A stretch of 64,000 nt of DNA from a virus: the IMG/VR virus record IMGVR_UViG_3300025646_008465, positions 12,265 through 76,264 of that record. One strand, 5' to 3'. Within the stretch, counting starts at the first letter, position 1; every line of letters begins with the position of its first letter. The notes under the pieces are model-generated. The model saw nothing but the letters and a program-made list of their open reading frames with translations, ran no database searches and was not told the origin of the DNA. Position numbers and translations under genes: made by a program. Below are positions 35,749 to 57,644 of the stretch, piece after piece.

Positions 35749-36945
35749 TCAAAAATGTAAAACTTTTTTTACAGAACTAATTACTTTTGCAGGAGTAATA
35801 GATTTAGTACATTCAAATTGGCGGGGTGTGTCTTTATGATCAGGACACCATTCCCAATCACCAGGATTTAACCATTCACGATTAAAACATCCGCTGCAAA
35901 ATCCTTTAGGGGCACCAATACGCTCACAGTCTTCAAATTCAGTATGTTCTTCACTAAATCCTGAAATTAAAACAACAGGAGTTCCAATAGCCCATGCTAA
36001 CCAAGATAAACCACTACCAACACCAATAAAAGCTTCGGCATGTTTAATTTGGTTCATTCTTACTTCAATAGGTTTATCACCGGTTTCATCAATTACATTT
36101 TGTAAAGTACCTCCTAATTTAGAATCGTGCCAATCATCATTTAAGGGTTCATGTGTAATCATCATTACCTTATAACCCTCTTCATTCAATTCATCAATTA
36201 CTTTTTGCCAACCACCGGGGTAATTCCAATACTTAGCGTGAGCTGAAGCATGAGGTGCAATTACAACATATTTTTCTTCAATAGGACGTCCTGTATCTTT
36301 AAAATTAACTCTGGGTTTGATTTCTTTATAGTTTAGTCCTAAAATATCAGTTGCGGTAGCTTGTAAAGGAATTGGTTTAAAATCACGAGGTACTCTATCT
36401 TTATTAAAGGTTCTATCATCATTATAAAACCAACCAATTCCATACATTGCATATAAATCAAATACTTCTTTTCCGGGTTCTATAAATTCAAGTTCAGGAT
36501 ATAAATCTTGAAACCATTCATTTTTAAAAGTTGATACTATAACATGGCAACCCCAAACTTTTTTAAATTCTTCAATATAAGGAAACCAAGCTAAAGTATC
36601 TCCAATAGCTGATGAATCTAGATGAATATAAACTCGTTTACCTTTAGCATCATAATTATGTTCAAATACTAATTCATTAGTTTCTTTATCATAAACTTTA
36701 ATACCCCAATTTGTAAAATATTTACGATTAGTTCGAGTCCACATATTGTTTGTAATCACAGTATCATGGATAATTTCATTATTAGAATTATCTGTAATTA
36801 TAACTCTATAATTTTTTTTCTGACTACCTGAAACTTCAACAAATGCTCCTTCAATAAAATTAATGTTAAAAGTATTACCTAAAGTTTTAATAGGCAATCT
36901 AAGGTTTACTAAGGTGTTGTATTCTTGTATTAATTCTTTTTTCAT
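35749..36945 (-). CDS. TibC/Aah-like (autotransporter heptosyltransferase family) protein O-glycosyltransferase
   Basis: N-terminal beta domain (KYFTNW..VFEHNYD), IGDTLAWFPY, AKYWN..GW, FIGVGSGLSWLAWA..TPVVLISGFS, and four-Cys cluster CSGC..WCP..RQFECTK. Confidence 0.85.
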   Translation of the reverse strand: MKKELIQEYNTLVNLRLPIKTLGNTFNINFIEGAFVEVSGSQKKNYRVIITDNSNNEIIHDTVITNNMWTRTNRKYFTNWGIKVYDKETNELVFEHNYDAKGKRVYIHLDSSAIGDTLAWFPYIEEFKKVWGCHVIVSTFKNEWFQDLYPELEFIEPGKEVFDLYAMYGIGWFYNDDRTFNKDRVPRDFKPIPLQATATDILGLNYKEIKPRVNFKDTGRPIEEKYVVIAPHASAHAKYWNYPGGWQKVIDELNEEGYKVMMITHEPLNDDWHDSKLGGTLQNVIDETGDKPIEVRMNQIKHAEAFIGVGSGLSWLAWAIGTPVVLISGFSEEHTEFEDCERIGAPKGFCSGCFNREWLNPGDWEWCPDHKDTPRQFECTKSITPAKVISSVKKVLHF

Positions 36946-37895
36946 AACACTTGATTATAAATGTTTATTAAATCTTTTGTTCTATTTTCCCAACTAAAAT
37001 CTTTACCAGTTTGAATTGCTGATTTGGTGTAGTGATCCCATTGGTTTAAAATATCATTTAAACCTTCTTCCATACGGAATATATTGCGAGGAGCTCTCCA
37101 CATTCCAAAAAAATCAGTTTCCATTTCAATCCATCCTATAATAGGCAAACCACAAGCTGCTGCTTCTAATAATGTAAGGTTAGGATGACCCGCTTCTAAT
37201 TCTGAAGGATGTAAGAAAATATCATGGTTCCAGTAAATTTGTCTTAATTCTAAATTTGAGGGTTCCCAAATAAATTTAAGTTTGGGGTAATTTAAAACCC
37301 ATAAATTTTCATTTATCCAATTTTCATTGTTTTTAGGACCTACAATTGTAATAGGCAAATTACGTTTCATAGCTAAACCTACACCATAAGCAAATCCTTT
37401 TCTATCATGTCCATTTTTACCACCCATACCATTATTAGCTAACATAAGTAGTTTTGGTTCAATAGGTCTAGGTTTAGATATAGTTTTAGGATAAAAATCA
37501 TTAGTATTTACTCCATGTGGAAAATAAACACATTTAGGGTGTTTAAAATAATCTACTAACCATTTAGCAGGCATAAGTGAAATTAAAGAACCTTCAATAG
37601 CTTCTAAATTTTCTTTATAAACATGAGAATCTTCACCATAATACATTACATGGTGATCATGTAATTGATAGATATAGGGTATGCCACGATGTTTAAGATC
37701 AATTGCTAAATTAGCTACATGACAATGGACAATATCAAACTCACCAAGGTTTATATACCCCCCAAGACGATGAGTAGATTCATGGCCTAATTTTCTTTGG
37801 TTTACTTCAAATTCCCAAATAATTTTTTCAATAGCCCCCCAGTTTTTAGGAGGAATATCTAAACCACAAGCGGGATCTACATGGCAAATTTTCAT
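36942..37895 (-). CDS. GT4-family glycosyltransferase
   Basis: IPPKNWGAIEK, PHGV, HPSELEAGHPNLTLLEAAACGLPII. Confidence 0.88.
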   Translation of the reverse strand: MKICHVDPACGLDIPPKNWGAIEKIIWEFEVNQRKLGHESTHRLGGYINLGEFDIVHCHVANLAIDLKHRGIPYIYQLHDHHVMYYGEDSHVYKENLEAIEGSLISLMPAKWLVDYFKHPKCVYFPHGVNTNDFYPKTISKPRPIEPKLLMLANNGMGGKNGHDRKGFAYGVGLAMKRNLPITIVGPKNNENWINENLWVLNYPKLKFIWEPSNLELRQIYWNHDIFLHPSELEAGHPNLTLLEAAACGLPIIGWIEMETDFFGMWRAPRNIFRMEEGLNDILNQWDHYTKSAIQTGKDFSWENRTKDLINIYNQVL

Positions 37896-38494
37896 AGGTT
37901 TTTATTTTTAGCGTAAATCATACCTAAGTTATAATCTTTATGAATATGTTCAAAATTAGTTGCAAAGTTATTTTTACTAAACATTTCTAAGATTTCAAAT
38001 ATTTTATAATAATTTTCATATATGTCATGAACTTCAATAGCAAATTGATTTATTCGAGAAATTTCTTGGGGTGTAGCGTTTAATAATAAAGGATATTCCC
38101 AATATTCGATATCAATCTTACAAAAATCAACTTTACTTAATTTAAACTGATTGAAAATAGTTGTAAAATTATAATGGTTTGGTTCTATTCTATCACTAAC
38201 AAATCCTTTTATAGTTGTTACTTTAGGATTATTACAAAAATTTAAATCTAAACAATTATAATAATTTTCAGAACATTCAAAAGAATAAACATGATGTGCT
38301 CCTTTATTTAAGGCATATTTTGTAAAACTTCCAACATTAGCTCCTAAATCTAAAACAATATCATAAGGACGAATTTGCAACCCATGACGATCGTATTCAT
38401 GTTCTTCCCAAATTTCTTTTTTTACATTGATAAGCCAATTTTCATCCACATCTTGTGGAAAATAAAACCCTTCGATTACTTTAAAACTGTTCAT
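37892..38494 (-). CDS. FkbM-family SAM-dependent methyltransferase
   Basis: VLDLGANVGSF, YSFE, KIDIE..E, IEVH. Confidence 0.88.
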   Translation of the reverse strand: MNSFKVIEGFYFPQDVDENWLINVKKEIWEEHEYDRHGLQIRPYDIVLDLGANVGSFTKYALNKGAHHVYSFECSENYYNCLDLNFCNNPKVTTIKGFVSDRIEPNHYNFTTIFNQFKLSKVDFCKIDIEYWEYPLLLNATPQEISRINQFAIEVHDIYENYYKIFEILEMFSKNNFATNFEHIHKDYNLGMIYAKNKNL

Positions 38495-41208
38495 TCTGCT
38501 GCGTAAATTTCAGGGCTATTTTCATCCATTCCTTTAAATTCTTGTTCAATAATACTAAATCCTGGGAGGTGTTTAGTATAAATTTTTTCGGCTGTGCCTA
38601 CTTTAAGTTGAGCAACATTACAAACCCACATATCAAAAGCATCCCAAGGAGTATTTTTAACCATATATTGAAGATAACTAATTTTATCTTTATTAATTAA
38701 ATATGATTGAGCTGGGATGAATGGTGTTACATTTGTATAAATGTCTTCAACTTTAGGTCCATTTAAGTTACGGTTGTTAGATGGATTTCCAAATCCAATA
38801 ATATCTTGGTCTTGTTCTCTTGCAATTCTAGAAAAACGAATTAATGAATTATATAATTCTTGATAATCTGAATCAATAATAACATCACCTTCAAAAATCA
38901 AAACATAATCATAATCTTTATTATCTTCAGCTAAAATAGCATTAGTATGAGCTAAATAACAACCATAATGACCCGGGGCTAATTTATAATAACCAGGAAC
39001 ATCTTGAACATCATCTGGGCGATTACAAGTATCTGTTGGTGGGATATCTTTATAAATTTCATTTATACGTTGTTCGTATTTAATACCGGTTTTCTCACAA
39101 AAGTCAAATACACTTTCTATTGAACGAATTTCTTTAGGATTAGAATTAGGTTCAGTAACTAGATGCATCAATTTAATTTTTGGTTTATTATTAAATTGAA
39201 GTTTATATTCAAATGTACCATTTTTTTCTAATTCATTATTATAGTAGTTATTATCTACAATAACTTCTTTAGATTCAATAAATTCCTTAGTATCTAAATC
39301 ATATAAATCCCACTTAACAATATAAGTACTTTCAAAATCAAATTGAACTAAATCATAGGTATAGAATTTACTTTTAACCTCAAATTTAGCTTCATTAATA
39401 ATAACACCATTTTTAATTAAAGTATAATTAATAAAACGACTATCATTATTGTTTGAAATTTGAACAAATGGGGCAAAATGTCCTGGGATATTAGAGATAG
39501 GTAATACTGTAAAATATTCTACTCGCGAATAGTCTTGGTGAAAGAAGGTTTTAGTACATTCTTCTTGAAATTTATCTCTATCTTCCCAATGAACATTTGT
39601 ACTATTTTTAAATCCATGATACATTAAGTTTTCTAAACCATTAGATTCAGAACCCCACTCATGCATTAAAGCATCATACTGTTCGGCAGTATCAATTTTA
39701 GGTTTTTGTAAGAAAAATTCAGGACGAATACCTAAAAACCAAGTTGTAATTTGATCTCCTTCTGATGCTTGATCTTTACCAAAAAAAGCATCTTTATAGT
39801 TTAATACAGAACTAATTTTGTTTACATAAGATACATCTTGTAAAATATAATCATAGTTAAGAAAATATACTTTTTTAATTCCTAACCCTTGTGCTAAAGC
39901 AGCACCATTATAATAATTTGTATAACAAGTAGGACCATGATAAACATCATTATCTTCACCTCTTAAATTGATATGAGCATTACAATCATGTTGATTAGTC
40001 CACGAATTAGTATAAAATGTATGCTTTGTTAAAATGTTATGATTATCATTAATTGAATAATCTACAATATCATCTAATTCTTTAGGAATAGGAATATGCG
40101 AGGTTAAAATAACTTTACGACCTGTTGCTTTAATAGCTTGAATACACTCTTTAGTAGTATTAATAACTGCTTGGGTAACAGGGTATGTAGAAATAATAAA
40201 TGCTTCTTCTTCAGGATTAACATCTAATGCTTTATAAACAATCTCATCATTTAAACCTAAAAGTGATTCAATAGTTTTAGCATTTTTTTCTTTATTGTTA
40301 AAATCAAGATAATTTACATTATCGAATTGATCCCAATAATTCATATACACTGGGAGGTTGTAAATAAGTAGTTCCATGTTCCATGAAATAGATTCACGGA
40401 TTACCAAAGGCATGGTTTCTTTATCTGTGTTTGTGCCTCGAGAGGTAAACAAAAATAAATCCATTGCCTTGTAAAAATTATCTACATCTTTACGTTCATT
40501 CCACCAAGTTACGTTTGGTGGAACATCTTTCATTAAAGGTTCCCAATACCATTTGAAGTTATCTGCCTGATTGCCTACACTATGAAATTGAATATCAGGG
40601 AGCATTCGAGCATATTCAAAAAATTCTGCTTGATTTTTACGAGGTGTAAATAAACCAACATGTAAAACATGTTTTTTATTTGGATCTAACCCTAAAGCAC
40701 GTAATGCTTCTTCACGATTAGGACGTTCTTTATACTCGATAGGATAATAAACTACTTTTTTAGGGACATCAATATCTTTATATTGTTGTACTTGCCATTC
40801 TGAGACAAATAAGAATTTATCAGGGAAGAATGATTTTTTAGTAGTATCATATGATGAATCGTGGGATGTTTCTACAAGAAAATAAGGTCGATCTTGCCTG
40901 TATAGTGTTGACGCAATTTCATGGTCCATAAAATATTCAGGAATTTCCTCTAAATGTATAATATCGGGTTTAATGCGATTAACAATGTTAAGAAATTCCG
41001 ATTTATTTTCACCTAATACAAAAAAACGTTCAGCAGGAATCATATTCTGTAAACGTTCTCTTTGAACAATTAAAACTCCCCCTGTTAAATTATCCCATTC
41101 AACAAGATAGATTTCAAAATCATCTTTAATTAATTCAATTTTTTTAGTAAGATATTGTGGAAGTCCGCCTGTCGACAAATGGGGTGCAACACACAGTAAT
41201 TTTTTCAT
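38491..41208 (-). CDS. multidomain glycosyltransferase (GT4-like N-domain, central domain, GT25-like C-domain)
   Basis: HLSTGG, RKNQ, DLFLFTS...ETMPLVIRE; central LNYD; C-terminal GHYGCYLAH and LIFEGD. Confidence 0.82.
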   Translation of the reverse strand: MKKLLCVAPHLSTGGLPQYLTKKIELIKDDFEIYLVEWDNLTGGVLIVQRERLQNMIPAERFFVLGENKSEFLNIVNRIKPDIIHLEEIPEYFMDHEIASTLYRQDRPYFLVETSHDSSYDTTKKSFFPDKFLFVSEWQVQQYKDIDVPKKVVYYPIEYKERPNREEALRALGLDPNKKHVLHVGLFTPRKNQAEFFEYARMLPDIQFHSVGNQADNFKWYWEPLMKDVPPNVTWWNERKDVDNFYKAMDLFLFTSRGTNTDKETMPLVIRESISWNMELLIYNLPVYMNYWDQFDNVNYLDFNNKEKNAKTIESLLGLNDEIVYKALDVNPEEEAFIISTYPVTQAVINTTKECIQAIKATGRKVILTSHIPIPKELDDIVDYSINDNHNILTKHTFYTNSWTNQHDCNAHINLRGEDNDVYHGPTCYTNYYNGAALAQGLGIKKVYFLNYDYILQDVSYVNKISSVLNYKDAFFGKDQASEGDQITTWFLGIRPEFFLQKPKIDTAEQYDALMHEWGSESNGLENLMYHGFKNSTNVHWEDRDKFQEECTKTFFHQDYSRVEYFTVLPISNIPGHFAPFVQISNNNDSRFINYTLIKNGVIINEAKFEVKSKFYTYDLVQFDFESTYIVKWDLYDLDTKEFIESKEVIVDNNYYNNELEKNGTFEYKLQFNNKPKIKLMHLVTEPNSNPKEIRSIESVFDFCEKTGIKYEQRINEIYKDIPPTDTCNRPDDVQDVPGYYKLAPGHYGCYLAHTNAILAEDNKDYDYVLIFEGDVIIDSDYQELYNSLIRFSRIAREQDQDIIGFGNPSNNRNLNGPKVEDIYTNVTPFIPAQSYLINKDKISYLQYMVKNTPWDAFDMWVCNVAQLKVGTAEKIYTKHLPGFSIIEQEFKGMDENSPEIYAAE

Positions 41209-41231
41209 AGACTATTTTTAAAATATAACAA

Positions 41232-41263
41232 TAATATAATAACTTATTTATAAATATCCAAGC
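41232..41263 (-). promoter_or_regulatory. overlapping host-type and late promoters of the glycosylation cassette
   Basis: CTTG-N20-TATATTAT with TATTTATA (41249-41256) inside the spacer. Confidence 0.45.
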
Positions 41264-45671: not shown

Positions 45672-45731
45672 TTAGATGGTTAAGTTTGTTATCTATGATA
45701 AATATTAAAAAAATATTAGATTATTGGAATT

Positions 45732-45773: not shown

Positions 45774-46133
45774 CTAACCTGGGGGAGGGTCTCCACATAC
45801 ATAAGGACCTGAAAGTTCAGTCCCATCCCAAAAGTAATAAATTCCCTCGGGGTGGGCATAAAATCCAGGATCAGCTACCTCTGCACCACAACCCCCAGGT
45901 CTATATAAAATACCTAAATCATTACTAAAATCCCAAGGTTGGATATCTAATAACTCACATGCTATACCTGGGTCTCCAGGATCATATGAAAGAGTAAGTG
46001 GCTTACAACTTACAGAACTAGGCCATCCAGGTATGTTTGAGGTTGAAAATCCTGAAACTTTACTTAAAGAAGTAATTTCTTTTCCACCTACAAATTGTAT
46101 ACTATTTACATCAATATTAGATATTTTAGCCAT
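45774..46133 (-). CDS. hypothetical fibre-associated protein
   Basis: 119 aa, four Cys, between the two fibre genes. Confidence 0.65.
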   Translation of the reverse strand: MAKISNIDVNSIQFVGGKEITSLSKVSGFSTSNIPGWPSSVSCKPLTLSYDPGDPGIACELLDIQPWDFSNDLGILYRPGGCGAEVADPGFYAHPEGIYYFWDGTELSGPYVCGDPPPG

Positions 46134-46484: not shown

Positions 46485-49400
46485 TTATAAGGTTATCCAA
46501 GTTACATCTGGTTGGAACCATATACATTTTACTGCTGATGTATTATCAACTACCCATCCTACACCTCTAACTCTATCTCCTGTAGTAAATCCACTAGTAT
46601 CGTCTGTTACTTGTCCATCAATATCACTTACCCATAAAGAATCACCTATATTAGTAGCACTAGTTACTTCCTCTGTAGTTATCATACCTTGAATAAATAC
46701 ATCAACTTCTTCATCAGCTCCACCTGTACCATTTAATACAATTCCTAGTAACTTTTCAGCACTTACACCACCAGCATTTGCGGGTCTCCATCTACCTGTA
46801 GAGAAATTATACCACACTAATTGTCCTTTAGAAAGAGAGGTATCACTAACCGCTCCTGTTAATACATGACCTTGATAAAGGAAATCACCTATACCTTGTA
46901 TATTACCCCATTGTTGATAAGTTGTATGTCCAGGGAATGGAGCAGTATATGAAGAAACAATACTATTAATATCAGTATCACCTACTAAAAGGAAACCTTT
47001 GCTTTGGTCAAAATTAAAGTTAGGACTGCTAGTACTTCCTAAACCAGAACCTCTAATATCTCCTTCAACATAAAGTATTCTATTAGGTTTATCTATACTT
47101 AAGAATTCTGCACTTTGAGCTAAAGTACTAGAAGAACCTGTAGAATATAATAGATGGTCTGGTGAATATGACCAAGTACCTCCACTAATACCACTAGTAC
47201 CATTAAATGATACTCCTGAAGTTGCTGCGGTACCATTTGTACCTGAAGTACCATTTTTACCTGAAGTACCACTTGTCCGTGTTAAACCGCTTGTACCGGC
47301 AGTACCACTTGTTCCTGAAGTGAATGAAGATGATCCACTAGTACCGTTTGTACCATTTTTACCTGAAGTACCACTGGTTCCATTAGTTGCACTTTGTCCT
47401 GAGGTACCAGCTGTGCCGCTTGTTCCCGAAGTGAATGAAGATGATCCACTAGTACCATTAGTACCATTCCGTCCTGAAGTACCTGAAGTGCCTGAAGTAC
47501 CTGATTTGCCACTTGTTCCACTAGTACCTGAAGTACCTGAGGTAAATGAAGATGATCCACTAGTACCGTTAGTACCATTCCGTCCTGAAGTACCTGCTGT
47601 ACCACTTGTACCTGAAGTACCGGCTTTACCACTTGTTCCACTTGTACCTGAAGTACCTGAGGTAAATGAAGATAAACCGCTTGTACCATTAGTACCATTC
47701 CGTCCTGAAGTACCACTTGTACCGCTAGTTCCACTTAATCCTGAAGTACCTGAAGTGCCTGAAGTGCCTGAAGTAAATGAAGATAAACCACTTGTAGCGC
47801 TTGTACCATTTTTACCTGAAGTACCACTTGTACCGCTAGTTCCACTTAATCCTGAAGTACCTGAAGTACCGTTTGTTCCTGAAGTAAATGAAGATAAACC
47901 GCTTGTACCGTTTGTACCGTTCCGTCCTGAAGTGCCTGAAGTGCCTGAAGTGCCTGAAGTGCCTGAAACACCACTTGTACCTGAAGTACCAGTTGTACCT
48001 GAAGTAGTACTTAAACCTGATAAACCAGCAGCTCCATCTAAACCTGCTGTACCTGAAGTACCTGATGATCCGGCTGTTCCTGAAGTCCGGCTTAACCCGC
48101 TTTGTCCGTGGGTTCCTGAAGCACCTGTAGTACCTGAAGTACCATTTGTACCTGAAGTCCGGCTAGCACCACTTTGTCCGTTAGTTCCTGAAGCACCTGT
48201 AGTACCACTTGTTCCTGTAGTACCACTTGTTCCTGAAGCTCCTGAAGTACGTGAAGCTCCATTTGCTCCGTTTGTACCTGAAGTACCTGTTGAACCGCTA
48301 GTGCTTGAAACTCCTGAAGTCCGTGAAGCACCGTTTGCTCCGTTTGTACCTGAAGTACCACTTGATCCTGAAGTTCCAGATACATTTGAAGCGCCACTAT
48401 TTCCTGCAGTACCTGAAGCACCTGTAGTACCTGATGTGCCTGTTGTTCCTGAAGTCCGGCTTAAACCTGATCCTCCGGCATTACCATTAGCACCTGAAGT
48501 ACCATTTGTACCTGAAGTACCTGAAGTACCTGAAGTCCGGCTTAAACCTGATCCCCCAGCATTACCACTAGTACCTGTATTTCCTGAAGTACCTGAGGTA
48601 CCTGTTGTACCTGATGTACCTGATGTTCTACTTAATCCTGAAGCTCCAGCATTACCACTAGTACCAGTAGCACCTGTAGTACCTGAAGTACCTGCTGTTC
48701 CTGAAGTCCGGCTTAAACCTGATTGACCTGCAACACCTGCAGCTCCTGTTGTACCATTTGAACCATTAGTACCTGAAGTCTGGCTAATACCTGATTGACC
48801 CGCAACTCCTGCGGCTCCAGTAGTACCTGAAGAACCTTGAGTTCCTGAGGTTTGGCTTAAACCACTTTGTCCATTAGTTCCTGAAGCACCTGTAGTACCT
48901 GAAGTACCTGTTGTACCTGAAGTGCCACTAGCTCCTGAGGTTCTTGAAGCACCATTAGCTCCATTTGTACCTGATGTACCTGAGCTACCACTTGTACCTG
49001 AGGTCCGGCTTAAAGCTGAAGCTCCTGTAGTACCATTTGCTCCTGAAGTACCTGAAGTACCTGAACTACCTGAAGTAGCACTTAATGCTGAAGCACCTAC
49101 AGTTCCGGCATTACCACTTGTACCTGAGGTACCAGTTGTACCTGAGGTCCGGCTTAAACCACTTTGACCTGCAACTCCTGAAGCACCTGTAGTACCATTT
49201 GAACCATTAGTACCTGAAGTCTGGCTTAGACCTGATTGACCTGCTGTTCCGTTTGCACCTGTAGTACCATTAGATCCTGTAGTTCCTGAAGTTCCACTAA
49301 CACCACTTGTACGTGAAGCACCGTTTGCTCCGTTTGTACCTGAAGTACCTGAGCTACCGCTTGTACCTGAAGTTTGGCTGAGAGCAGAAGCACCTACAGT

Positions 49401-52400
49401 TCCATTATTTCCTGAAGTACCTGAAGTACCTGTTGTTCCTGAAGTTCCTGATACTCCTGAAGTCCGTGAAGCGCCATTTGCACCTACAGTACCATTTGTA
49501 CCAGTTGAACCGCTTGTTCCTGAAGTTTTAGAAGCACCTGAATCACCTGAAGCACCATCAACACCAGCTGTACCTGAGGTACCTGATGATCCGGCTGTTC
49601 CTGAAGTAGCACTTAATGCTGAAGCTCCTGTAGTACCAGCAGCACCTGTAGTACCACTTGTACCAGTAGTTCCTGAGGTTTTACTTAAACCTGATTGGCC
49701 TGCGTTTCCAGCATTACCTGTAGTACCGCTTGAACCTTGAGTTCCTGAAGTTGCGCTTAAACCACTTTGACCTGCAGTTCCATTAGCACCTGTAGTACCG
49801 TTTGTACCAGTTGAACCTGAAGTTCCTGATACTCCTGAAGTCCGTGAAGCGCCATTGGCTCCGTTTGTACCACTTGTACCTGAAGAACCTGATGTTCCTG
49901 AAGTCCGGCTTAAAGCAGAAGCGCCTACAGTTCCATTTGCTCCTGATGTACCTGAAGTTCCTGTTGAACCTGAAGTACCACTTAAAGCAGAAGCACCTAC
50001 AGTTCCGGCATTACCACTTGTACCTGAGGTACCAGTTGTTCCCGAGGTTTTACTTAAACCTGATTGACCAGCATTACCTGCGTTTCCTGTAGTACCGCTT
50101 GAACCTTGAGTTCCTGAGGTAGCACTTAAACCTGATTGACCTGCTGTTCCGTTTGCTCCAGTTGTACCATTTGTACCTGCTGAGCCACTTGTACCTGAAG
50201 TGCTACTAGCACCTGAAGTTCTTGAAGCGCCGTTTGCACCTGAAGTACCTGAAGTACCTGTTGAACCTGAAGTACCACTCAATGCAGAAGCACCTACTGT
50301 TCCATTATTACCACTTGTACCAGAAGTACCAGTAGAACCACTAGTTCCACTTAATGCAGAAGCACCTACTGTACCTGCATTTCCTGAAGTACCTGAAGTA
50401 CCTGTTGTTCCTGAAGTCCGGCTTAAACCTGATTGGCCTGCGTTTCCAGCATTACCCGTAGTACCTGAAGAACCTTGAGTTCCTGAGGTAGCACTTAAAC
50501 CTGAATTTCCAGCTGTTCCATTAGCACCTGTAGTACCTGCTGAACCTGTAGTTCCTGAGGTTCCTGATACTCCTGAAGTCCGTGAAGCGCCATTTGCACC
50601 TGAAGTACCTGAAGTACCTGTACTACCTGATGTACCACTTAACGCAGAAGCACCGTTTGTACCCGTATTACCTGATGTACCGCTTGTTCCTGTAGAACCG
50701 CTCGTACCTGATTGGCCTGATGTTCTAGACGCACCACTAGCGCCTACAGTACCTGAAGTACCTGATGAACCGCTAGTACCTGATGTTGCACTATCTGCAG
50801 ATTGACCTGTAGTTCCATTGTTACCAGATGTACCTGAAGTACCTGTGGTACCTGAAGTCCGGCTTAGACCTGATTGGCCTGCTACACCATTTGCACCTGT
50901 AGTACCGTTTGAACCGTTAGTACCTGAAGTAGTACTTAAACCACTTTTTCCGGCAGTTCCATTTACACCTGTAGTACCTGAAGATCCTGTAGTACCGCTT
51001 GTACCACTTTCAGCTGATAATCCAGAAGTACCATTAGCACCTGTAGTGCCATTTGTACCAGTTGAACCTGAAGTTCCTGAAACACCTGAAGTTCTTGAAG
51101 CACCATTAGCTCCAACTGTACCATTTGTACCGGTTGAACCACTAGTACCTGAAGTTGCACTTAAGTTAGATTGGCCTGCTACTCCAGCTGAACCTGTAGT
51201 ACCTGAAGTACCGGCTGTTCCTGAAGTAGAGCTTAAATTAGATTGACCTGCTATTCCAGCTGAACCTGTAGTACCTGAAGTACCAGCTGTTCCTGAAGTT
51301 TGGCTTAAACCACTTTGACCTGCGGTTCCATTAGCACCTGTTGTACCTGCTGAACCTGTAGTACCTGAAGTTGAGGATACACCACTAGTACCTGCAATAC
51401 CATTCTTTCCAGAAGTACCGTTTGTGCCAGTTGAACCTGAAGTTCCTGAAACACCACTTGTGCGTGAAGCTCCATCAGCACCTACTGTACCTGAGGTACC
51501 TGATGAACCACTTGTTCCTGAAGTTGCACTATTATTTGATAAACCAGCTGTACCTGCATTACCACTTGTACCTGAAGAACCTGTAGTACCACTTGTAGTA
51601 CTTAAACCTGATTTACCAGCAGTACCATTTGCACCCGTAGTACCAGATGAACCTGTAGTACCTGAAGTACCACTTAATGCTGAAGCACCTACAGTTCCAT
51701 TTTCTCCTGAAGTACCTGAGGTTCCTGTTGAACCTGAAGTACCACTTAGGGCAGAAGCACCTACAGTTCCATTATTTCCTGAAGTACCGCTTGTACCAGT
51801 TGAACCACTAGTTCCACTAACACCACTTGTACGTGAAGCACCATTAGCTCCAACTGTACCGTTTGTACCTGAAGAACCTGAAGTTCCTGAAGTTGCACTA
51901 TTATTTGATTGACCTGCTACTCCTACAGAACCTGTTGTACCTGAAGTACCTGAAGTACCTGAAGTAGCTGATTGATTTGATTGACCTGCGTTTCCGGTTG
52001 AACCTGTAGTACCTGAAGTACCGGCTGTTCCTGAAGTTGCACTTAAACCTGAGTTTCCAGCAGTTCCATTGGCACCAGTTGTACCCGCAGATCCAGTTGT
52101 TCCTGAGGTTGAAGATACACCACTAGTACCTGCAATTCCATCTTTACCGCTTGTACCATTTGTACCAGTTGAACCTGAAGTTCCTGAAACTCCCGAAGTT
52201 CTTGAAGCTCCGTTTGCACCCACAGTACCATTTGTACCAGTTGAACCTGAAGTACCTGAAGTAGCTGATTGGTTAGATTGGCCTGCTACTCCAGCTGAAC
52301 CTGTTGTACCAGTAGTACCTGAAGTACCAGAAGTTCCACTCGTTCCTGAACCTGGGTCTTCACCATTTCCAGTTATACCTGATGAACCCTGAGTTCCTGA

Positions 52401-55400
52401 AGTACCACTTGTACCACTTGTACCTGAAGTAGATGATAAATTACTTTGTCCTGCTGCACCTTGAGAACCAGTAGTTCCTGAAGATCCACTTGTACCTGAG
52501 GTAGCACTTAGATTAGATTGACCAGCTGTTCCAGCTGCTCCAGTAGTACCAGATGAACCTGTTGTACCTGAGGTAGCACTTTCAGCTGATTTTCCAGTTG
52601 TACCTGCATTTCCTGAGGTGCCTGAAGTACCTGTTGAACCTGAGGTACCACTTAAAGCAGAAGCGCCTACTGTCCCATTTGCTCCTGATGTACCTGAAGT
52701 TCCTGTAGAACCTGAAGTACCAGATTTACCACTTGTACGAGAAGCACCATCGGCTCCAACTGTACCAGTTGTACCAGATGAACCTGAAGTTCCTGATGTT
52801 GCACTATCATTTGATTGACCAGCATCTCCTGCTGAACCCGTTGTTCCTGAAGTACCACTTGTACCTGAAGTTCTACTATCACCTGAAAGTCCAGCAGCTC
52901 CATTTGAACCTGCTGTACCTGAAGTACCACTAGTTCCACTTACAGCTGAGGTTCTATTAGCTCCATCTGCTCCGTTTGTACCTGAGGTACCAGTTGAACC
53001 TGATGTGCCAGCTTTACCACTAGTTCCGTTAGCTCCATCTTTTCCTGAGGTACCAGTTGAACCTTGAGTACCACTTGTAGCACTTTCACCTGAAGTACCT
53101 GCTACTCCATCTTTTCCTGAAGTACCAGCTGAACCTGTAGTTCCTGAAGTACTAGATACTCCTGAGGTACCTGCTACTCCATCTTTTCCTGAAGTACCTG
53201 CTGTACCTGTAGAACCTGAAGTGCCACTTTGTGCAGAGGCTCCTACAGTACCATTTTCTCCGCTAGTACCACTTGTACCAGTTGAACCTGAAGTTCCGCT
53301 AATACCTGAAGTGCGTGAAGCACCATCAGCACCTACAGTACCTGTAGTACCTGATGAACCTGAGGTTCCTGAAGTTGCACTTAAAGCTGAGTTACCAGCA
53401 GTACCTGCATTTCCTGAGGTACCTGAAGAACCAGTTGTACCTGAAGTAGCACTTAATGCAGATAAACCTGCAGTTCCGTTTTCACCTGAGGTACCTGCAG
53501 TACCAGTTGAACCACTAGTTCCACTAACGCCTGAAGTTCTTGAAGCTCCATTAGCTCCATTTGTACCTGAAGTACCAGTTGAACCTGAAGTACCTGAAAC
53601 TCCGGAAGTGCCTGAAATTCCATCAGCACCTACAGTACCATTTGAACCTGTAGTTCCTGAAGTGCCTGATACTCCTGAAGTACCTGCAACTCCGTTTTGT
53701 CCTGAACTACCGTTAGATCCTGTAGTACCTGATGTTGAAGATACACCACTGGTACCTGCGGCACCATCGGCACCTGATGAGCCATTAGATCCTGTAGTAC
53801 CGCTTGTAGCACTTAAACCTGAAGTACCATCAATTCCAGCATTTCCTTTAGTACCACTTGAACCAGTTGTTCCTGAAGTTCCTGAAACTCCTGAAACTTT
53901 TGAATCTCCTGCTGAACCCTGAGTACCTGAAGTACCAGTTGAACCTGAAGTACCTGAGGTAGCACTATTATTTGATTGTCCTGCTACTCCTGTAGAACCT
54001 GTAGTTCCTGATGAACCTGAAGTTCCTGAAGTAGAGCTTAAATTACTTTCTCCGGCAACCCCAGCTGAACCTGTTGTTCCTGAAGAACCACTTGTTCCTG
54101 AAGTAGCACTTAAATTACTTTCACCCGCAGCTCCTACAGTACCTGTAGAACCACTAGTACCTGAAGTACCAGAAGTTTGTGAAGCTCCATCAGCACCTAC
54201 TGTACCTGATGAACCTGTTGAACCTGAAGTTCCTGAAACACCTGAAGTACGAGATGCTCCATCAGCTCCTACAGTACCTGAAGTACCAGTTGAACCTGAA
54301 GTACCGCTAGTACCTGAAGTCGCACTATCATTTGATTGACCTGCTACTCCTGCAGAACCCGTTGTTCCTGATGAACCTGAAGTTCCTGAAGTAGAAGATA
54401 AGTTACTTTCGCCTGCAATTCCGGCTGAACCTGTAGTACCACTTGAACCACTAGTTCCTGAAGTTGCACTTAAATTTGATTCACCTGCATCTCCTGCAGA
54501 GCCCGTTGTTCCTGAAGTACCAGATGTACCTGAAGTTTGTGAAGAACCATCAGCTCCTACTGAACCTGAAGTACCAGTTGAACCTGAAGTTCCTGAAACA
54601 CCTGAAGTTCTTGAAGTACCATCGGCACCTACAGTACCTGATGAACCTGTAGAACCACTAGTACCTGAGGTACCAGAAGTTACTGATAAACCTGATTCAC
54701 CTGCAATTCCTGTAGAACCTGAAGTACCAGTTGAACCTGAAGTACCGCTAGTACCTGAATCTGCACTAGTACCTGAAGTACCAGATTCACCACTTGTACC
54801 AGCTCCTGCTCCAGTACCACTTGAACCTTGTGTACCTGAAGTACCTGCGGTTCCTGATGTATTGCTTAATCCACTTTCACCTGCTACCCCAGCTGAACCT
54901 GTAGTTCCTGAAGTACCACTAGTACCTGAAGTGAATGATAAATTACTTTCACCTGCAACCCCTGCTGAACCGGTTGTTCCTGATGAACCTGAAGTTCCTG
55001 AAGTTGCACTTAAATTTGAAGCACCTGCGTCTCCGGCTGAACCTGAAGTACCAGATGAACCTGAAGTTCCTGAGGTTGCGCTTAATGCTGAGGCACCTAC
55101 AGTACCATTTTCACCACTTGTACCTGCTGAACCTGTAGAACCACTAGTTCCACTAACTCCACTTGTGCGTGAAGCACCATCGGCTCCTGTAGTACCTGAA
55201 GTACCAGTTGAACCTGAAGTTCCGCTAACACCACTTGTGAAAGATTCACCATCAGCTCCAGCTGAGCCTGAAGTGCCAGTTGAACCTGAAGTACCAGAAG
55301 TACCAGAAGTTTGTGAAGCTCCATCGGCACCTACAGTACCTGATGAACCTGTAGAACCACTAGTACCTGAAGTACCAGAAGTTGCACTATTGTTTGATTG

Positions 55401-57614
55401 TCCTGCTACTCCAGCTGAACCTGTTGTTCCTGAAGAACCACTTGTTCCTGAAGTAAATGACAAATTACTTTCTCCGGCTACACCCGCACTACCTGTAGTA
55501 CCTGATGAACCTGATGTTCCTGAAGTTGATGATAAGTTAGATTCACCGGCAGCTCCTGCTGAACCAGTTGAACCTGAAGTACCGCTAGTACCTGAGGTTT
55601 GTGAAGAACCATCAGCTCCTACTGAACCTGAAGTACCTGTAGAACCTGAGGTTCCACTAACTCCACTTGTACGTGAAGCACCATCAGCACCTACAGTACC
55701 TGATGAACCTGTAGAACCACTAGTACCTGAAGTTGCACTTAAATTGCTTTCACCCGCAGCTCCTACTGAACCTGTAGTACCTGAAGTACCACTAGTACCT
55801 GAAGTTGCGCTATTATTTGATTCACCAGCTGAACCTGTAGTACCTGTAGTACCTGAAGTTCCACTAGTTCCTGAAGTTCTTGATAAACCATCAGCTCCTA
55901 CAGTACCACTAGTACCTGTAGAACCTGAAGTACCACTAACACCTGAGGTATCACTAGCTCCATTTGAACCTGCTGTACCTGAAGTTCCTGTTGAACCCGA
56001 GGTGCCTGAAACACCACTTGTGCGTGAAGCTCCATCAGCTCCTACGGTACCTGAAGTACCAGTAGAACCACTAGTACCTGAGGTAGAACTTAAATTACTT
56101 TCTCCTGCGATTCCGGCAGAACCTGTAGTACCACTAGTACCACTAGTACCTGAAGTAGAAGATAAGTTACTTTCACCTGCATCTCCTGCGGAACCTGTAG
56201 TACCTGAAGTACCACTTGTGCCTGAGGTTGATGATAAATTTGATTCACCTGCAGCTCCTGCTGAACCAGTTGAACCTGAAGTACCACTAGTACCTGAGGT
56301 TTGTGAAGAACCATCTGCTCCTACACTACCACTTGTACCAGTAGAACCACTAGTACCTGAAACCCCACTTGTACGTGAAGCTCCGTCAGCTCCTACAGTA
56401 CCACTTGTACCTGTAGATCCTGAGGTACCACTTGTACCTGAGGTAGCTGATAAATTTGATTCACCTGCATCTCCAGCACTACCTGTAGTACCTGAAGATC
56501 CAGATGTTCCTGATGTATTACTTAAAGCAGATTGACCTGCTGTTCCATTTTCACCTGTTGTACCTGCTGAACCAGTTGAACCTGAAGTTCCTGATTGACC
56601 TGAAGTTCTTGAAGCTCCTGTGGCACCTACTGTACCTGAAGTACCTGTTGAACCTGAGGTTCCAGATTCGCCTGATGTAAAACTAGCACCATTAGTACCA
56701 GCTGTACCACTTGAACCTGTAGTACCTGAAGTTCCGGATTCGCCACTAGTGCGTGAAGCTCCTGTGGCACCTACTGTACCTGAAGTACCAGTTGAACCTG
56801 AAGATCCTGAAATGCCACTAGTTCTATTTAAACCATCAGCACCTGTAGTACCTGAGGTACCAGTTGAACCTGATGAACCTGAGGTACCTGAAGTATTTGA
56901 AGTACCATCAGCTCCAGCATCTCCATTAGAACCTGTAGTACCTGAAGTACCTGAAACCCCACTTGTACGTGAAGCTCCGTCAGCACCTACTGTACCTGAT
57001 GAACCTGAACTACCTGAAGATCCTGAAACACCTGAAGTTCCATTTTCTCCTGATGAACCTGCTGAACCTGTTGAACCTGATGAGCCGCTAAAACCACTAA
57101 AACCGTCATCACCCGCTGAACCTATTGAACCTGAAGTTCCGCTAGTTCCTGAAGAACCGGATTCACCTGAAGTACCAGCTTCACCAGAACTACCTGATGA
57201 ACCTGAAGAACCTGATGAGCCTGAGCTGCTAGCTACAGCAGAAGCACCTGATGAACCTCCTGTACCACTTGAACCCGAGGCACCACCACTAGTACCAGAT
57301 GTACCTTGTGTTCCTGAAAGACCACTACTACCTGAAGTACCGTTTGAACCTGAATCTCCAGAAGATCCATTAGCTCCTGAACTACCTGATAAACCTGAGG
57401 AACCTTGTGAACCACTTGAACCTGAAGAACCTGCACTTCCTGAAGAACTAGAAAAACCTGAAGTACCAGATGTCCCTGAGCTTCCAGAAGTACCAGAACT
57501 GCCGGCACTTCCTGAAGAACCTGAAGAACCTGATTGTCCAGATTCTCCACTTATTCCATCTGCTCCTTGGAATGATGTAATTGATACTTGGTCTAAAAAT
57601 CTTACGTTGGCCAT
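46485..57614 (-). CDS. giant Gly/Ser/Thr tripeptide-repeat fibre protein (3709 aa) with C-terminal capsid-decoration-like domain
   Basis: About 3460 aa of G-X-S triplets; C-terminal KGQLVWY..WRPANA..LLGIV..QGMI..GDSLWVS..GQVT..RGVG; late motif at 57632-57639. Confidence 0.85.
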   Translation of the reverse strand: MANVRFLDQVSITSFQGADGISGESGQSGSSGSSGSAGSSGTSGSSGTSGTSGFSSSSGSAGSSGSSGSQGSSGLSGSSGANGSSGDSGSNGTSGSSGLSGTQGTSGTSGGASGSSGTGGSSGASAVASSSGSSGSSGSSGSSGEAGTSGESGSSGTSGTSGSIGSAGDDGFSGFSGSSGSTGSAGSSGENGTSGVSGSSGSSGSSGTVGADGASRTSGVSGTSGTTGSNGDAGADGTSNTSGTSGSSGSTGTSGTTGADGLNRTSGISGSSGSTGTSGTVGATGASRTSGESGTSGTTGSSGTAGTNGASFTSGESGTSGSTGTSGTVGATGASRTSGQSGTSGSTGSAGTTGENGTAGQSALSNTSGTSGSSGTTGSAGDAGESNLSATSGTSGTSGSTGTSGTVGADGASRTSGVSGTSGSTGTSGSVGADGSSQTSGTSGTSGSTGSAGAAGESNLSSTSGTSGTSGTTGSAGDAGESNLSSTSGTSGTSGTTGSAGIAGESNLSSTSGTSGSTGTSGTVGADGASRTSGVSGTSGSTGTSGTAGSNGASDTSGVSGTSGSTGTSGTVGADGLSRTSGTSGTSGTTGTTGSAGESNNSATSGTSGTSGTTGSVGAAGESNLSATSGTSGSTGSSGTVGADGASRTSGVSGTSGSTGTSGSVGADGSSQTSGTSGTSGSTGSAGAAGESNLSSTSGTSGSSGTTGSAGVAGESNLSFTSGTSGSSGTTGSAGVAGQSNNSATSGTSGTSGSTGSSGTVGADGASQTSGTSGTSGSTGTSGSAGADGESFTSGVSGTSGSTGTSGTTGADGASRTSGVSGTSGSTGSAGTSGENGTVGASALSATSGTSGSSGTSGSAGDAGASNLSATSGTSGSSGTTGSAGVAGESNLSFTSGTSGTSGTTGSAGVAGESGLSNTSGTAGTSGTQGSSGTGAGAGTSGESGTSGTSADSGTSGTSGSTGTSGSTGIAGESGLSVTSGTSGTSGSTGSSGTVGADGTSRTSGVSGTSGSTGTSGSVGADGSSQTSGTSGTSGTTGSAGDAGESNLSATSGTSGSSGTTGSAGIAGESNLSSTSGTSGSSGTTGSAGVAGQSNDSATSGTSGTSGSTGTSGTVGADGASRTSGVSGTSGSTGSSGTVGADGASQTSGTSGTSGSTGTVGAAGESNLSATSGTSGSSGTTGSAGVAGESNLSSTSGTSGSSGTTGSTGVAGQSNNSATSGTSGSTGTSGTQGSAGDSKVSGVSGTSGTTGSSGTKGNAGIDGTSGLSATSGTTGSNGSSGADGAAGTSGVSSTSGTTGSNGSSGQNGVAGTSGVSGTSGTTGSNGTVGADGISGTSGVSGTSGSTGTSGTNGANGASRTSGVSGTSGSTGTAGTSGENGTAGLSALSATSGTTGSSGTSGNAGTAGNSALSATSGTSGSSGTTGTVGADGASRTSGISGTSGSTGTSGTSGENGTVGASAQSGTSGSTGTAGTSGKDGVAGTSGVSSTSGTTGSAGTSGKDGVAGTSGESATSGTQGSTGTSGKDGANGTSGKAGTSGSTGTSGTNGADGANRTSAVSGTSGTSGTAGSNGAAGLSGDSRTSGTSGTSGTTGSAGDAGQSNDSATSGTSGSSGTTGTVGADGASRTSGKSGTSGSTGTSGTSGANGTVGASALSGTSGSTGTSGTSGNAGTTGKSAESATSGTTGSSGTTGAAGTAGQSNLSATSGTSGSSGTTGSQGAAGQSNLSSTSGTSGTSGTSGTQGSSGITGNGEDPGSGTSGTSGTSGTTGTTGSAGVAGQSNQSATSGTSGSTGTNGTVGANGASRTSGVSGTSGSTGTNGTSGKDGIAGTSGVSSTSGTTGSAGTTGANGTAGNSGLSATSGTAGTSGTTGSTGNAGQSNQSATSGTSGTSGTTGSVGVAGQSNNSATSGTSGSSGTNGTVGANGASRTSGVSGTSGSTGTSGTSGNNGTVGASALSGTSGSTGTSGTSGENGTVGASALSGTSGTTGSSGTTGANGTAGKSGLSTTSGTTGSSGTSGNAGTAGLSNNSATSGTSGSSGTSGTVGADGASRTSGVSGTSGSTGTNGTSGKNGIAGTSGVSSTSGTTGSAGTTGANGTAGQSGLSQTSGTAGTSGTTGSAGIAGQSNLSSTSGTAGTSGTTGSAGVAGQSNLSATSGTSGSTGTNGTVGANGASRTSGVSGTSGSTGTNGTTGANGTSGLSAESGTSGTTGSSGTTGVNGTAGKSGLSTTSGTNGSNGTTGANGVAGQSGLSRTSGTTGTSGTSGNNGTTGQSADSATSGTSGSSGTSGTVGASGASRTSGQSGTSGSTGTSGTSGNTGTNGASALSGTSGSTGTSGTSGANGASRTSGVSGTSGTTGSAGTTGANGTAGNSGLSATSGTQGSSGTTGNAGNAGQSGLSRTSGTTGTSGTSGNAGTVGASALSGTSGSTGTSGTSGNNGTVGASALSGTSGSTGTSGTSGANGASRTSGASSTSGTSGSAGTNGTTGANGTAGQSGLSATSGTQGSSGTTGNAGNAGQSGLSKTSGTTGTSGTSGNAGTVGASALSGTSGSTGTSGTSGANGTVGASALSRTSGTSGSSGTSGTNGANGASRTSGVSGTSGSTGTNGTTGANGTAGQSGLSATSGTQGSSGTTGNAGNAGQSGLSKTSGTTGTSGTTGAAGTTGASALSATSGTAGSSGTSGTAGVDGASGDSGASKTSGTSGSTGTNGTVGANGASRTSGVSGTSGTTGTSGTSGNNGTVGASALSQTSGTSGSSGTSGTNGANGASRTSGVSGTSGTTGSNGTTGANGTAGQSGLSQTSGTNGSNGTTGASGVAGQSGLSRTSGTTGTSGTSGNAGTVGASALSATSGSSGTSGTSGANGTTGASALSRTSGTSGSSGTSGTNGANGASRTSGASGTSGTTGTSGTTGASGTNGQSGLSQTSGTQGSSGTTGAAGVAGQSGISQTSGTNGSNGTTGAAGVAGQSGLSRTSGTAGTSGTTGATGTSGNAGASGLSRTSGTSGTTGTSGTSGNTGTSGNAGGSGLSRTSGTSGTSGTNGTSGANGNAGGSGLSRTSGTTGTSGTTGASGTAGNSGASNVSGTSGSSGTSGTNGANGASRTSGVSSTSGSTGTSGTNGANGASRTSGASGTSGTTGTSGTTGASGTNGQSGASRTSGTNGTSGTTGASGTHGQSGLSRTSGTAGSSGTSGTAGLDGAAGLSGLSTTSGTTGTSGTSGVSGTSGTSGTSGTSGRNGTNGTSGLSSFTSGTNGTSGTSGLSGTSGTSGTSGKNGTSATSGLSSFTSGTSGTSGTSGLSGTSGTSGTSGRNGTNGTSGLSSFTSGTSGTSGTSGKAGTSGTSGTAGTSGRNGTNGTSGSSSFTSGTSGTSGTSGKSGTSGTSGTSGRNGTNGTSGSSSFTSGTSGTAGTSGQSATNGTSGTSGKNGTNGTSGSSSFTSGTSGTAGTSGLTRTSGTSGKNGTSGTNGTAATSGVSFNGTSGISGGTWSYSPDHLLYSTGSSSTLAQSAEFLSIDKPNRILYVEGDIRGSGLGSTSSPNFNFDQSKGFLLVGDTDINSIVSSYTAPFPGHTTYQQWGNIQGIGDFLYQGHVLTGAVSDTSLSKGQLVWYNFSTGRWRPANAGGVSAEKLLGIVLNGTGGADEEVDVFIQGMITTEEVTSATNIGDSLWVSDIDGQVTDDTSGFTTGDRVRGVGWVVDNTSAVKCIWFQPDVTWITL
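47178..57566 (-). repeat. coding 9-bp-period repeat (GGT ACT TCA)n, about 10.4 kb
   Basis: Degenerate tandem CCTGAAGTA units with higher-order blocks. Confidence 0.95.
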
Positions 57615-57644
57615 TTATACGTGTGGTTTGATATAAATATAAAA

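Follow-up and report, generated by a model that had tools for sequence, protein, structure and literature searches.

A Gly-X-Y fibre locus of a phage contig with an adjoining TibC-like glycosyltransferase cassette, a candidate module for virion-fibre modification

Why would an uncultured aquatic phage place a set of glycosyltransferases (GT) among its virion genes, next to thousands of residues of Gly-Thr/Ser-Ser repeat? This question is raised by a region of a 64,000-nucleotide (nt) stretch of DNA, positions 12,265 to 76,264 of IMG/VR virus record IMGVR_UViG_3300025646_008465 (76,264 nt, estimated to be 47% complete), which we call the window. The region, all of whose genes are carried by the minus strand, encodes two giant repeat proteins (fibres A and B) and, after fibre B, a 905-residue multidomain transferase (GT905), an FkbM-family methyltransferase, a stand-alone GT4 glycosyltransferase and an enzyme resembling TibC, a protein O-glycosyltransferase of the family of bacterial autotransporter heptosyltransferases (BAHT). 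The sequence features described below, and their distribution in other genomes, suggest with a probability of roughly 0.65 that the region encodes virion fibres together with a dedicated post-translational modification cassette, which would glycosylate the fibres.

Two Gly-X-Y fibres and the enzymes encoded beside them

Fibres A and B together comprise 5176 amino acids (aa), 4197 of which belong to stretches of four or more consecutive Gly-X-Y triplets; such stretches make up 79% of A and 88% of B. Gly is found at each third position, X is Thr more often than Ser and Ser more often than Ala, and Y is overwhelmingly Ser, with some Thr and Ala. Ser and Thr account for 45-46% of both proteins, and Pro is almost missing (∼0.2%), with 8 residues among the 3709 of A and 7 among the 1467 of B. 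Since ∼9 in 10 of the breaks between triplet runs are 3 or 6 residues long, the triplet phase is preserved across them. As assessed on 400-aa pieces, A and B match the Pfam Collagen family (PF01391) with 139 and 163 bits, respectively (cut-off 27.2), and in both proteins the stabilizing Pro, hydroxyproline or charged residues expected of a collagen at X and Y are missing. A preliminary description of this DNA had presented the repeats as (G-T/S-S)n with about half hydroxyl residues, which is accurate, but it missed the strict collagen-type recurrence of Gly; its term "mucin-like" suits the composition only, these being collagen-model Gly-X-Y proteins.

Fibre A begins with a conserved 16-aa motif (MANVRFLDQV...), continues with ∼3440 aa of proline-free Gly-X-Y organized in a 24-aa super-repeat, and closes with a non-repeat part of ∼250 aa whose end resembles a β-tulip domain. 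Fibre B consists of an N-terminal domain of ∼55 aa, ∼1330 aa of Gly-X-Y (Thr/Ser) and a C-terminal piece of ∼45 aa, and both of its termini are conserved in relatives (L010-L013, L040 and L042). A PHROGs search with the fibre termini gave no match. The DNA repeats that encode the fibres have diverged (65-93% matches; periods of 63, 72 and 351-369 nt), which makes an assembly collapse unlikely. In addition, the gp15-like gene of a relative (G002) is followed directly by a single open frame of ∼4660 aa beginning with MAQVRFLDQV, indicating that the giant size is real and conserved. An assembly artefact as the source of the giant open reading frame (ORF) is therefore rejected, on account of the diverged repeats and of this longer homologue on an independent contig. 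An extended triple helix rises by ∼0.29 nm per residue, so that fibre A, if fully extended in this form, would be close to 1 μm long and fibre B close to 0.4 μm.

The last enzyme of the cassette is the TibC-like protein. It aligns with the TibC chains 4rb4/4rap over residues 43-394 of its 398 (phmmer, E 3e-56) and scores 333.7 bits against the NCBI equivalog TIGR04414, for which the cut-off is 200; on sequence grounds it is a genuine member of the BAHT family. In TibC, the catalytic base is Asp110 and the ligand residues are Lys230, Arg286, Trp305 and Thr226 (PMC4358343). The phage enzyme has D116, K238, R296 and W315 in place of D110, K230, R286 and W305, and a conservative Ser in place of T226; the catalytic and ligand residues are likewise kept in 79-80 of 80 related phage copies. 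The four iron-finger cysteines of TibC (339, 342, 358 and 370) correspond to C350, C353, C367 and C379, and they are invariant in 80 of 80 phage copies and 62 of 62 classical copies. An adenine-contacting Arg is also retained. The N-terminal β-barrel (TibC_1st, PF21129) is matched with 21.4 bits, below its cut-off of 27, and the phmmer alignment spans TibC residues 40-97. In the classical case, the acceptor of a BAHT is the passenger of an autotransporter encoded next to it; no autotransporter was found in the window, where the neighbours are the Gly-X-Y fibres. Fused BAHT proteins of 600-2000 aa occur among the homologues.

GT905 comprises a GT4 (GT-B) domain (residues 1-320, Pfam), a GT-A-fold domain (residues ∼330-590) followed by a β-sandwich, and a weak GT25-like domain (residues ∼670-905, Pfam). 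As modelled by AlphaFold2 (AF2), residues 330-660 have a GT-A/nucleotidyltransferase-type fold with a predicted local distance difference test (pLDDT) value of 81.7, and in VIA comparisons Z reaches 13.6 for this middle domain, the matches being WrtF, B4GALNT1, mannosylglycerate synthase and GlmU. Of 42 related phage cassettes that were seen whole, every one has the BAHT, the stand-alone GT4 and the first two domains of GT905 (GT4 and middle), and 21 have the GT25-like domain. FkbM is found in 14 of them, where its position varies or it is fused, which makes it an accessory component. The three junctions between the enzyme genes (GT905/FkbM, FkbM/GT4 and GT4/TibC-like) are all ATGA overlaps.

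What had been said earlier about these genes holds as an observation and in part as an interpretation. The full-length match to TibC, the TIGR04414 score and the kept catalytic and iron-finger residues support the label TibC/Aah-like, the overlaps confirm an ATGA-coupled operon, and the observation as a whole, repeat genes with an enzyme operon near the sheath gene, stands once the repeats are corrected to Gly-X-Y. The cassette does sit inside the morphogenesis region, among structural genes, is translationally coupled, and shares a promoter-like motif with them. On the other hand, the proposed order of action, in which the TibC-like enzyme primes, the other GTs extend and FkbM caps, is pure conjecture; FkbM is encoded in only 14 of the 42 cassettes.

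Linkage of the cassette to repeat proteins in phages and bacteria

If the cassette serves the fibres, the two should be found together elsewhere. Homologues of the BAHT number 5522 at E ≤ 1e-10; a scan of viral contigs gave 230 with a BAHT relative, and 80 loci were read. The order Gly-X-Y fibre, GT905, GT4, BAHT and sheath is conserved in related viral contigs. Upstream sequence of 1.5 kb or more is available for the cassettes of 36 loci, and in 31 of these a same-strand Gly-X-Y ORF lies there; three of the five exceptions end before a fibre could appear, and two are differently laid out. Two distant phages, Microcystis phage Mel-JY01 and LR756501 (735 kb), have BAHTs only 42% identical to that of the window. 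Mel-JY01 has its BAHT at the C-terminal end of a 1226-aa protein that also contains a GT4, and an unannotated Ser/Thr-rich Gly-X-Y ORF (∼1770 aa if the ends of the record are joined) lies two genes upstream. In LR756501, a G/S/T-rich ORF adjoins the cassette, the domain set of which is the same as in the 42 related cassettes.

Such repeats also yield long spurious ORFs on the opposite strand, which could easily be mis-annotated by gene callers. In the window, these are found on the plus strand at 47320-48726, 54862-56535 and 56620-57636 (up to 557 aa), and a relative has Pro/Glu/Val-rich ones on the minus strand (L169, 10898-19000). Opposite-strand "hypothetical proteins", e.g. at 739-2298, are annotated over the Gly-X-Y ORF of Mel-JY01 (L001:2-3049 and L170, the two ends of PP395634.1), in its 3' part, where the ORF itself lacks annotation.

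A scan of prokaryotes, with one genome per species, gave 80 loci. A tree of 100 BAHTs splits in two: every Gly-X-Y-linked enzyme, phage or bacterial, is placed in the first half, and the classical enzymes of Burkholderia, Pandoraea, Acetobacter and similar bacteria are placed in the second (50 rows, 100% local support). When the comparison is limited to loci with at least 3 kb on both sides, a Ser/Thr-rich (GTS)n/(GSS)n ORF is present within 5 kb in 17 of 20 loci of the Gly-X-Y-linked half, as against 0 of 40 in the classical half. Four of the 17 (L098, L101, L114 and L133) are phage-like contigs binned into metagenome-assembled genomes (MAG), and 13 are clearly bacterial. Co-occurrence of TibC-like GTs with GTS-repeat genes, as anticipated in the preliminary description, is thus pronounced in both scans, the bacterial one being independent of that in phages. 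The bacterial carriers are Methylococcales and other Gammaproteobacteria, Arenicellales, Bdellovibrionota and a Bradyrhizobium MAG, some of them on megabase contigs. The (GTS)n/(GSS)n proteins beside their BAHTs are small, either lipoproteins or proteins with a signal peptide, and many have a poly-Asp tail; they are a candidate for an undescribed class of O-glycoproteins. Of the three downstream genes tested in the classical half, those of both Paraburkholderia loci (L158 and L168) encode an autotransporter β-domain (PF03797) at the end. The third, in an Acetobacteraceae MAG (L166:15141-16340), encodes a large protein with a Hint domain (PF13403) at its end in place of a β-domain.

The cassette also differs with the kind of fibre that it adjoins. 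Four phage loci (L025, L056, L057 and L060) have a proline-containing, classical-looking collagen, e.g. GPQGPTGP, at the position of the fibre. All four carry, in the slot between fibre and cassette, genes for a 2OG-Fe(II) oxygenase (PF13640, a superfamily with prolyl hydroxylases among its members) and for a GT2 or GT2-methyltransferase, and three of them, L056 and L025 included, encode a DUF6445 protein. The oxygenase and GT2 genes were found in none of at least 25 proline-free loci, the window among them. On the BAHT tree, the oxygenase-bearing state occurs in at least three separate places, and a proline-rich fibre is visible in two of these. That the enzyme set tracks fibre chemistry is the best indication that the slot genes serve the fibre. 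The oxygenase, GT2 and DUF6445 set is itself a candidate for a phage system of prolyl hydroxylation and glycosylation of classical collagen. Within the proline-type collagen-like fibre of L056 (1509-2700), a carbohydrate-binding PA14 domain is embedded (Pfam, E 6e-11); in the proline-type fibres of sister phages, a Pfam search for C1q/TNF-like end domains gave none.

These distributions bear on what the enzymes act upon. The cassette might modify host surface glycans (the O-chain of lipopolysaccharide (LPS) or the capsule), for instance to block superinfection, and adjoin the fibres as part of a variable region. Glycosyltransferases in the tail-fibre regions of marine myophages have indeed been assigned to modification of host O-antigen (PMC7029224), and LPS synthesis commonly involves the GT4, GT25 and GT2 families. 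We nevertheless consider action on host glycans improbable, because BAHTs O-glycosylate proteins in the cytoplasm (PMC4358343), the clade in question is the one that stands beside (GTS)n proteins, the enzyme set shifts with the chemistry of the fibre, and the core of the cassette is conserved in all 42 related cassettes rather than variable. Modification of DNA by the GTs was rejected as unlikely, since the acceptors of BAHTs are proteins and the cassette varies with the chemistry of the fibre. It is similarly improbable that the enzymes glycosylate other virion proteins (capsid or tail tube), or that only some of them act on the fibres, which would stay largely unmodified. Capsid and tail tube subunits are the reported targets in mycobacteriophages (Freeman et al. 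2023, PMC10527164). Set against this, a (GTS)n protein is the only recurrent bacterial neighbour of this BAHT clade, and no Gly-Ser/Thr tract was noted outside A and B in those window proteins that were read, which did not cover every ORF. Glycosylation of the fibres themselves is accordingly the reading that we prefer.

Fold, anchoring and gene neighbourhood of the fibres

Where the fibres sit on the virion was approached through the C terminus of fibre A. Its last ∼135 residues were modelled as a β-barrel domain (AF2, six homologues), with a pLDDT of 60-87 there and 56 overall, i.e. with moderate confidence. Phage capsid decoration proteins make up the best VIA matches: HFTV1 (8qsy_JI; Z 12.0, root mean square deviation 3.1, 120 residues aligned), cyanophage Pam3 (8hdt_G, Z 10.7), FCWL1 (9kmh_ak, Z 10.1), XM1 (Z 9.3), TW1 (Z 8.6), E217, Patience and Adjutor (Z ∼8.2). 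The base of the phi29 head fibre gp8.5 (6qyy_A, Z 7.2), lambda gpD (Z 4.4), herpesvirus triplex proteins and MoeA are matched as well. The top PDB matches in Foldseek belong to the same protein class, all of them short of E 0.001 (E 2e-3 to 4e-2). As modelled, the C-terminal domain of fibre A has the β-tulip fold, as in capsid decoration proteins, and the matches correspond to the β-tulip family of decoration proteins listed in PMC7602432; according to the same source, SPP1 gp12 is a capsid-binding trimer of collagen-like type. Models from a viral library show the domain of fibre A at the C terminus of many proteins of uncultured phages labelled "collagen triple helix repeat" or resembling tail fibres. 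Searches with the C-terminal 149 aa (tblastn and a word-indexed protein search) found no relatives among annotated phages and small proteins.

Because fibre A ends in this trimer-forming fold and its gene follows the neck genes, we place a head or neck (whisker-type) fibre slightly ahead. Anchoring at the head or neck, with the N terminus free, would fit both the mere 16 residues that precede the repeats and the place of the gene. The β-tulip domain could instead be a trimerizing tip. It is quite possible, if somewhat short of probable, that A and B are ordinary tail fibres attached by their conserved N termini, with the β-tulip-like domain as a receptor-binding or trimerizing tip. Several observations point this way and count against a head or neck fibre. 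Both ends of fibre A are conserved, the N-terminal motif as MAxVRFLDQV; its C-terminal domain, modelled with only the moderate confidence given above, also resembles the autochaperone of phi29 gp12 (Z 8.0). No other fibre genes were recognized after the tape measure gene, and the genes in the same slot of Flavobacterium phage immuto carry tail-fibre annotations, one of these genes having a similar C-terminal sequence motif, although these annotations are unverified. Moreover, by our estimate, a 3709-aa protein on all threefold sites of the capsid would amount to ∼10 times the mass of capsid protein. What speaks for the head or neck is that capsid decoration proteins supply all of the best fold matches and that so few residues precede the repeats of fibre A.

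The shape of the repeat part is a separate matter. The fibres may form no triple helix at all, the Gly-X-Y tracts being polyglycine-II-type bundles or disordered, truly mucin-like glycosylated brushes, with the every-third Gly reflecting a recognition motif of the BAHT or the history of repeat duplication. This is a credible alternative, though we rate it as somewhat short of probable: the fibres are almost without Pro, the bacterial partners are short (GTS)n/(GSS)n linkers in poly-Asp-tailed lipoproteins and so linker-like rather than fibre-like, and in-register breaks follow automatically from 72-nt repeat units. Against it stand the sister phages, which have proline-rich collagen (GPQGPTGP...) together with a 2OG-Fe(II) oxygenase at the same position, the normally trimer-forming fold at the end of fibre A, and the high Pfam Collagen scores.

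The gene neighbourhood is summarized in Table 1. In minus-strand order, the region runs from the adaptor-like gene through a 173-aa ORF, the gp15-like gene, fibre A, the DUF7936 gene, a 119-aa ORF and fibre B to GT905, FkbM, GT4, the TibC-like gene and the tail sheath gene. Fibre B thus does not follow A directly, being separated from it by two small genes, and a terminator-like hairpin (45754-45735) follows the second of these. Homologues of the DUF7936 protein are encoded near fibre genes in immuto and in L098, and the protein may be a candidate fibre accessory or assembly protein. Gene product gp043 of immuto (L083:13122-13538), labelled "lysozyme", is a homologue of it (27% identity over 116 aa); either that label or the function assigned to the DUF7936 family may need a second look.

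The sequence ATATTTAT occurs at 19 sites in the window, compared with 8.3 expected, and 17 of these are on the coding strand. At a distance of 20-45 nt it precedes the genes for GT905, the two fibres, the sheath (two copies) and the tube, and also genes starting at 32169 and 28277, the adaptor-like gene and lysis genes. The phages of this group probably use it as a promoter element. As it also precedes some non-structural genes, it would indicate control shared with the structural genes rather than strictly "late" timing.

The nearest cultured relatives of the window phage are immuto (53% identity in the sheath, 55% in the gp15-like protein and 59% in the tube) and Mel-JY01 (48% in the sheath), which makes a Bacteroidota host plausible. 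Megablast of 16 kb of the region against 50,697 phage records gave no matches. In two related phages, a gene for a NodU/CmcH-type carbamoyltransferase lies between GT4 and BAHT (L080:8395-10017 and L081:8380-10017), which suggests O-carbamoylated glycans; these two cassettes follow capsid-like genes, not a fibre.

Table 1. Features of the fibre and cassette region. Positions are those of the window unless a locus is named.
Feature	Position	Strand	Basis or remark
Adaptor-like gene	59103-60254	-	phrog_211, weak match
gp15-like tail terminator/neck protein	57645-58580	-	PF16724 E 4.5e-5, under family cut-off; upstream flank
ATATTTAT core	57633-57640		before fibre A
Fibre A, 3709 aa	46485-57614	-	translation, periodicity, Pfam Collagen
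DUF7936 protein, 111 aa	46139-46474	-	PF25590 67 bits, phrog_7802
119-aa ORF	45774-46133	-	without family match
Promoter-like motif TTTAATATTTAT	45698-45709	-	27 nt before fibre B start
ATATTTAT core	45698-45705		before fibre B
Fibre B, 1467 aa	41268-45671	-	translation, Pfam Collagen
ATATTTAT core	41250-41257		before GT905
GT905 multidomain transferase, 905 aa	38491-41208	-	Pfam, AF2
FkbM-family S-adenosylmethionine methyltransferase, 200 aa	37892-38494	-	PF05050 44 bits, TIGR01444 52 bits
Stand-alone GT4, 317 aa	36942-37895	-	PF00534, phrog_2170
TibC-like BAHT-family protein O-glycosyltransferase (predicted), 398 aa	35749-36945	-	phmmer, TIGR04414
ATATTTAT core, two copies	35730-35737, 35653		before sheath gene
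Tail sheath	33923-35629	-	strong: phrog_23 E 3e-78, PF04984, PF17482; downstream flank
ATATTTAT core, further sites	33900-33907, 13397-13404		
2OG oxygenase/GT2 insert between fibre and cassette	L056:4607-7092; L025:2565-5043; L060:2979-6414		
Bacterial (GTS)n/(GSS)n partners	L096:11172-12065; L104:8507-8950, 11232-11852; L118:8516-12601; also L116, L119, L102		

Proposed action of the cassette and known systems

Fibre glycosylation would proceed as follows. The BAHT would O-glycosylate Ser and Thr of the repeats as the fibres form in the cytoplasm of the infected cell. The always-present GT4 domain, GT-A-fold domain and stand-alone GT4, with the optional GT25-like domain, would add further sugars, and FkbM, also optional, may methylate the glycan. 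This would yield a filament with dense glycosylation, probably trimeric, that measures several hundred nm to ∼1 μm if fully extended.

A number of points weigh against this. The support for fibre glycosylation is genomic association throughout, and the marine myophage precedent mentioned above favours a host target. Known BAHTs act on folded β-helix passengers, not on Gly-X-Y tracts, and a stable triple helix is not known from proline-free G-T-S sequence. The phage loci are kin, so that their conserved order does not equal many independent events; most weight is therefore carried by the bacterial loci and the distant phages.

The donor sugar is a further difficulty. The residue that sets heptose stereochemistry (D,D- versus L,D-) is Pro300 in TibC and Ser294 in AAH (PMC4358343). 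In the phage BAHT it is Gly, as in 79 of 80 phage and 9 of 10 bacterial copies of the Gly-X-Y-linked half, compared with Ser in 46 of 62 copies of the classical half. The donor may thus differ, and judging from sequence this Gly may go with another configuration or with another sugar. No SIS_2/GmhA and no RfaE domain I or II was found in the contig of the window (47% complete); GmhA/RfaE genes were likewise not found in two relatives (G001 and G002; 34% and 69% complete), and none was found in a search of the complete Mel-JY01 genome. LR756501.1 encodes an RfaE domain-I-like kinase (209213-210175, L171; 306 bits, E 5e-92, below the cut-off of 345) far from its cassette. "Cytidylyltransferase-like" ORFs near the Mel-JY01 and G001 cassettes were marginal (21 bits) and were not counted. 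Heptose as the donor sugar is therefore unproven, and host-derived ADP-heptose is possible.

A wider view would be an undescribed "glyco-collagen" system, in which (a) a distinct TibC-like clade is common to aquatic phages and several bacterial phyla, (b) proline-free Gly-Thr/Ser-Ser polymers depend on dense O-glycosylation for folding or stiffness, (c) micrometre-scale glycosylated filaments are carried by this phage on its head or neck via a β-tulip base, and (d) these form a glycocalyx-like virion corona governing adhesion to hosts or particles. Taken jointly, the four parts are speculative, and we think it unlikely that all of them hold.

If fibre glycosylation is correct, BAHTs would no longer be only virulence-associated modifiers of autotransporters in Proteobacteria, and Gly-[Thr/Ser]-Ser repeats, in phages and environmental bacteria, would be a second class of BAHT substrate. 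With 230 viral contigs, this would be a widespread kind of phage virion glycosylation, and glycosyltransferase clusters of marine and freshwater phages, now usually read as host LPS modification, would be annotated differently. It would also offer a natural test of whether glycosylation replaces proline/hydroxyproline in the collagen helix, which bears on biomaterials. A cultured carrier exists (Mel-JY01), making a direct test possible. In the literature searched, no paper was found that connects BAHTs with phages or with collagen-like proteins.

Among known systems, the enzyme is closest to those of TibC-TibA and Aah-AIDA-I in Escherichia coli. The phage enzyme is a full-length homologue, ∼40% identical, with the Asp, Lys, Trp, Arg and four Cys kept, and like them it adjoins a repetitive Ser/Thr-bearing protein that is presumably hyperglycosylated in the cytoplasm. 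However, the partner is a Gly-X-Y collagen-model fibre instead of a β-helical autotransporter, the enzyme belongs to a separate clade and has Gly as the selector, ADP-heptose genes were not found in the genomes searched, and there are four or five extra transferase domains. The Gram-positive serine-rich repeat adhesins (GspB/Fap1) have Ser-X dipeptides, whereas the window fibres have Gly-every-third triplets; these adhesins are served by SecA2/SecY2 export and a Gtf locus, and no Sec-type genes were seen in the window.

On the side of the fibres, mimivirus, like the window phage, encodes collagen-like proteins and enzymes that modify or glycosylate surface fibrils; it differs in being a eukaryotic giant virus that modifies via hydroxylysine, with unrelated enzymes and no BAHT. 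Its glycosylated fibrils and virus-encoded collagen modification have been reviewed (PMC9614988). BclA-type spore proteins (BclA3 with SgtA, PMC7157674; PMC8968730) have Thr-rich Gly-X-Y that is O-glycosylated by glycosyltransferases encoded nearby, and they form a hair-like nap on the surface of Bacillus and Clostridioides spores, whereas the carrier here would be a virion. Their repeats are of GPT type, with Pro, they use other transferase families, and they extend over hundreds of residues compared with thousands in the window fibres. In phi29, gp8.5 is a trimeric fibre with a β-tulip base on the capsid, a layout comparable to the β-tulip-like domain and collagen-model rod of fibre A; relative to gp8.5 and SPP1 gp12, however, fibre A has the β-tulip at its C terminus and a rod 10-100 times longer, and no sequence similarity to either was found. 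Mycobacteriophages are reported to modify their own virion proteins with phage-encoded glycosyltransferases that lie beside structural genes (Freeman et al. 2023, PMC10527164); there, the targets are capsid and tail tube, transferase families and hosts are different, and collagen-like repeats play no part. Taken together, the window module parallels the virus-encoded virion glycosylation of mycobacteriophages, chloroviruses and mimivirus fibrils, and it differs from the known systems in enzyme clade, type of acceptor, scale and carrier.

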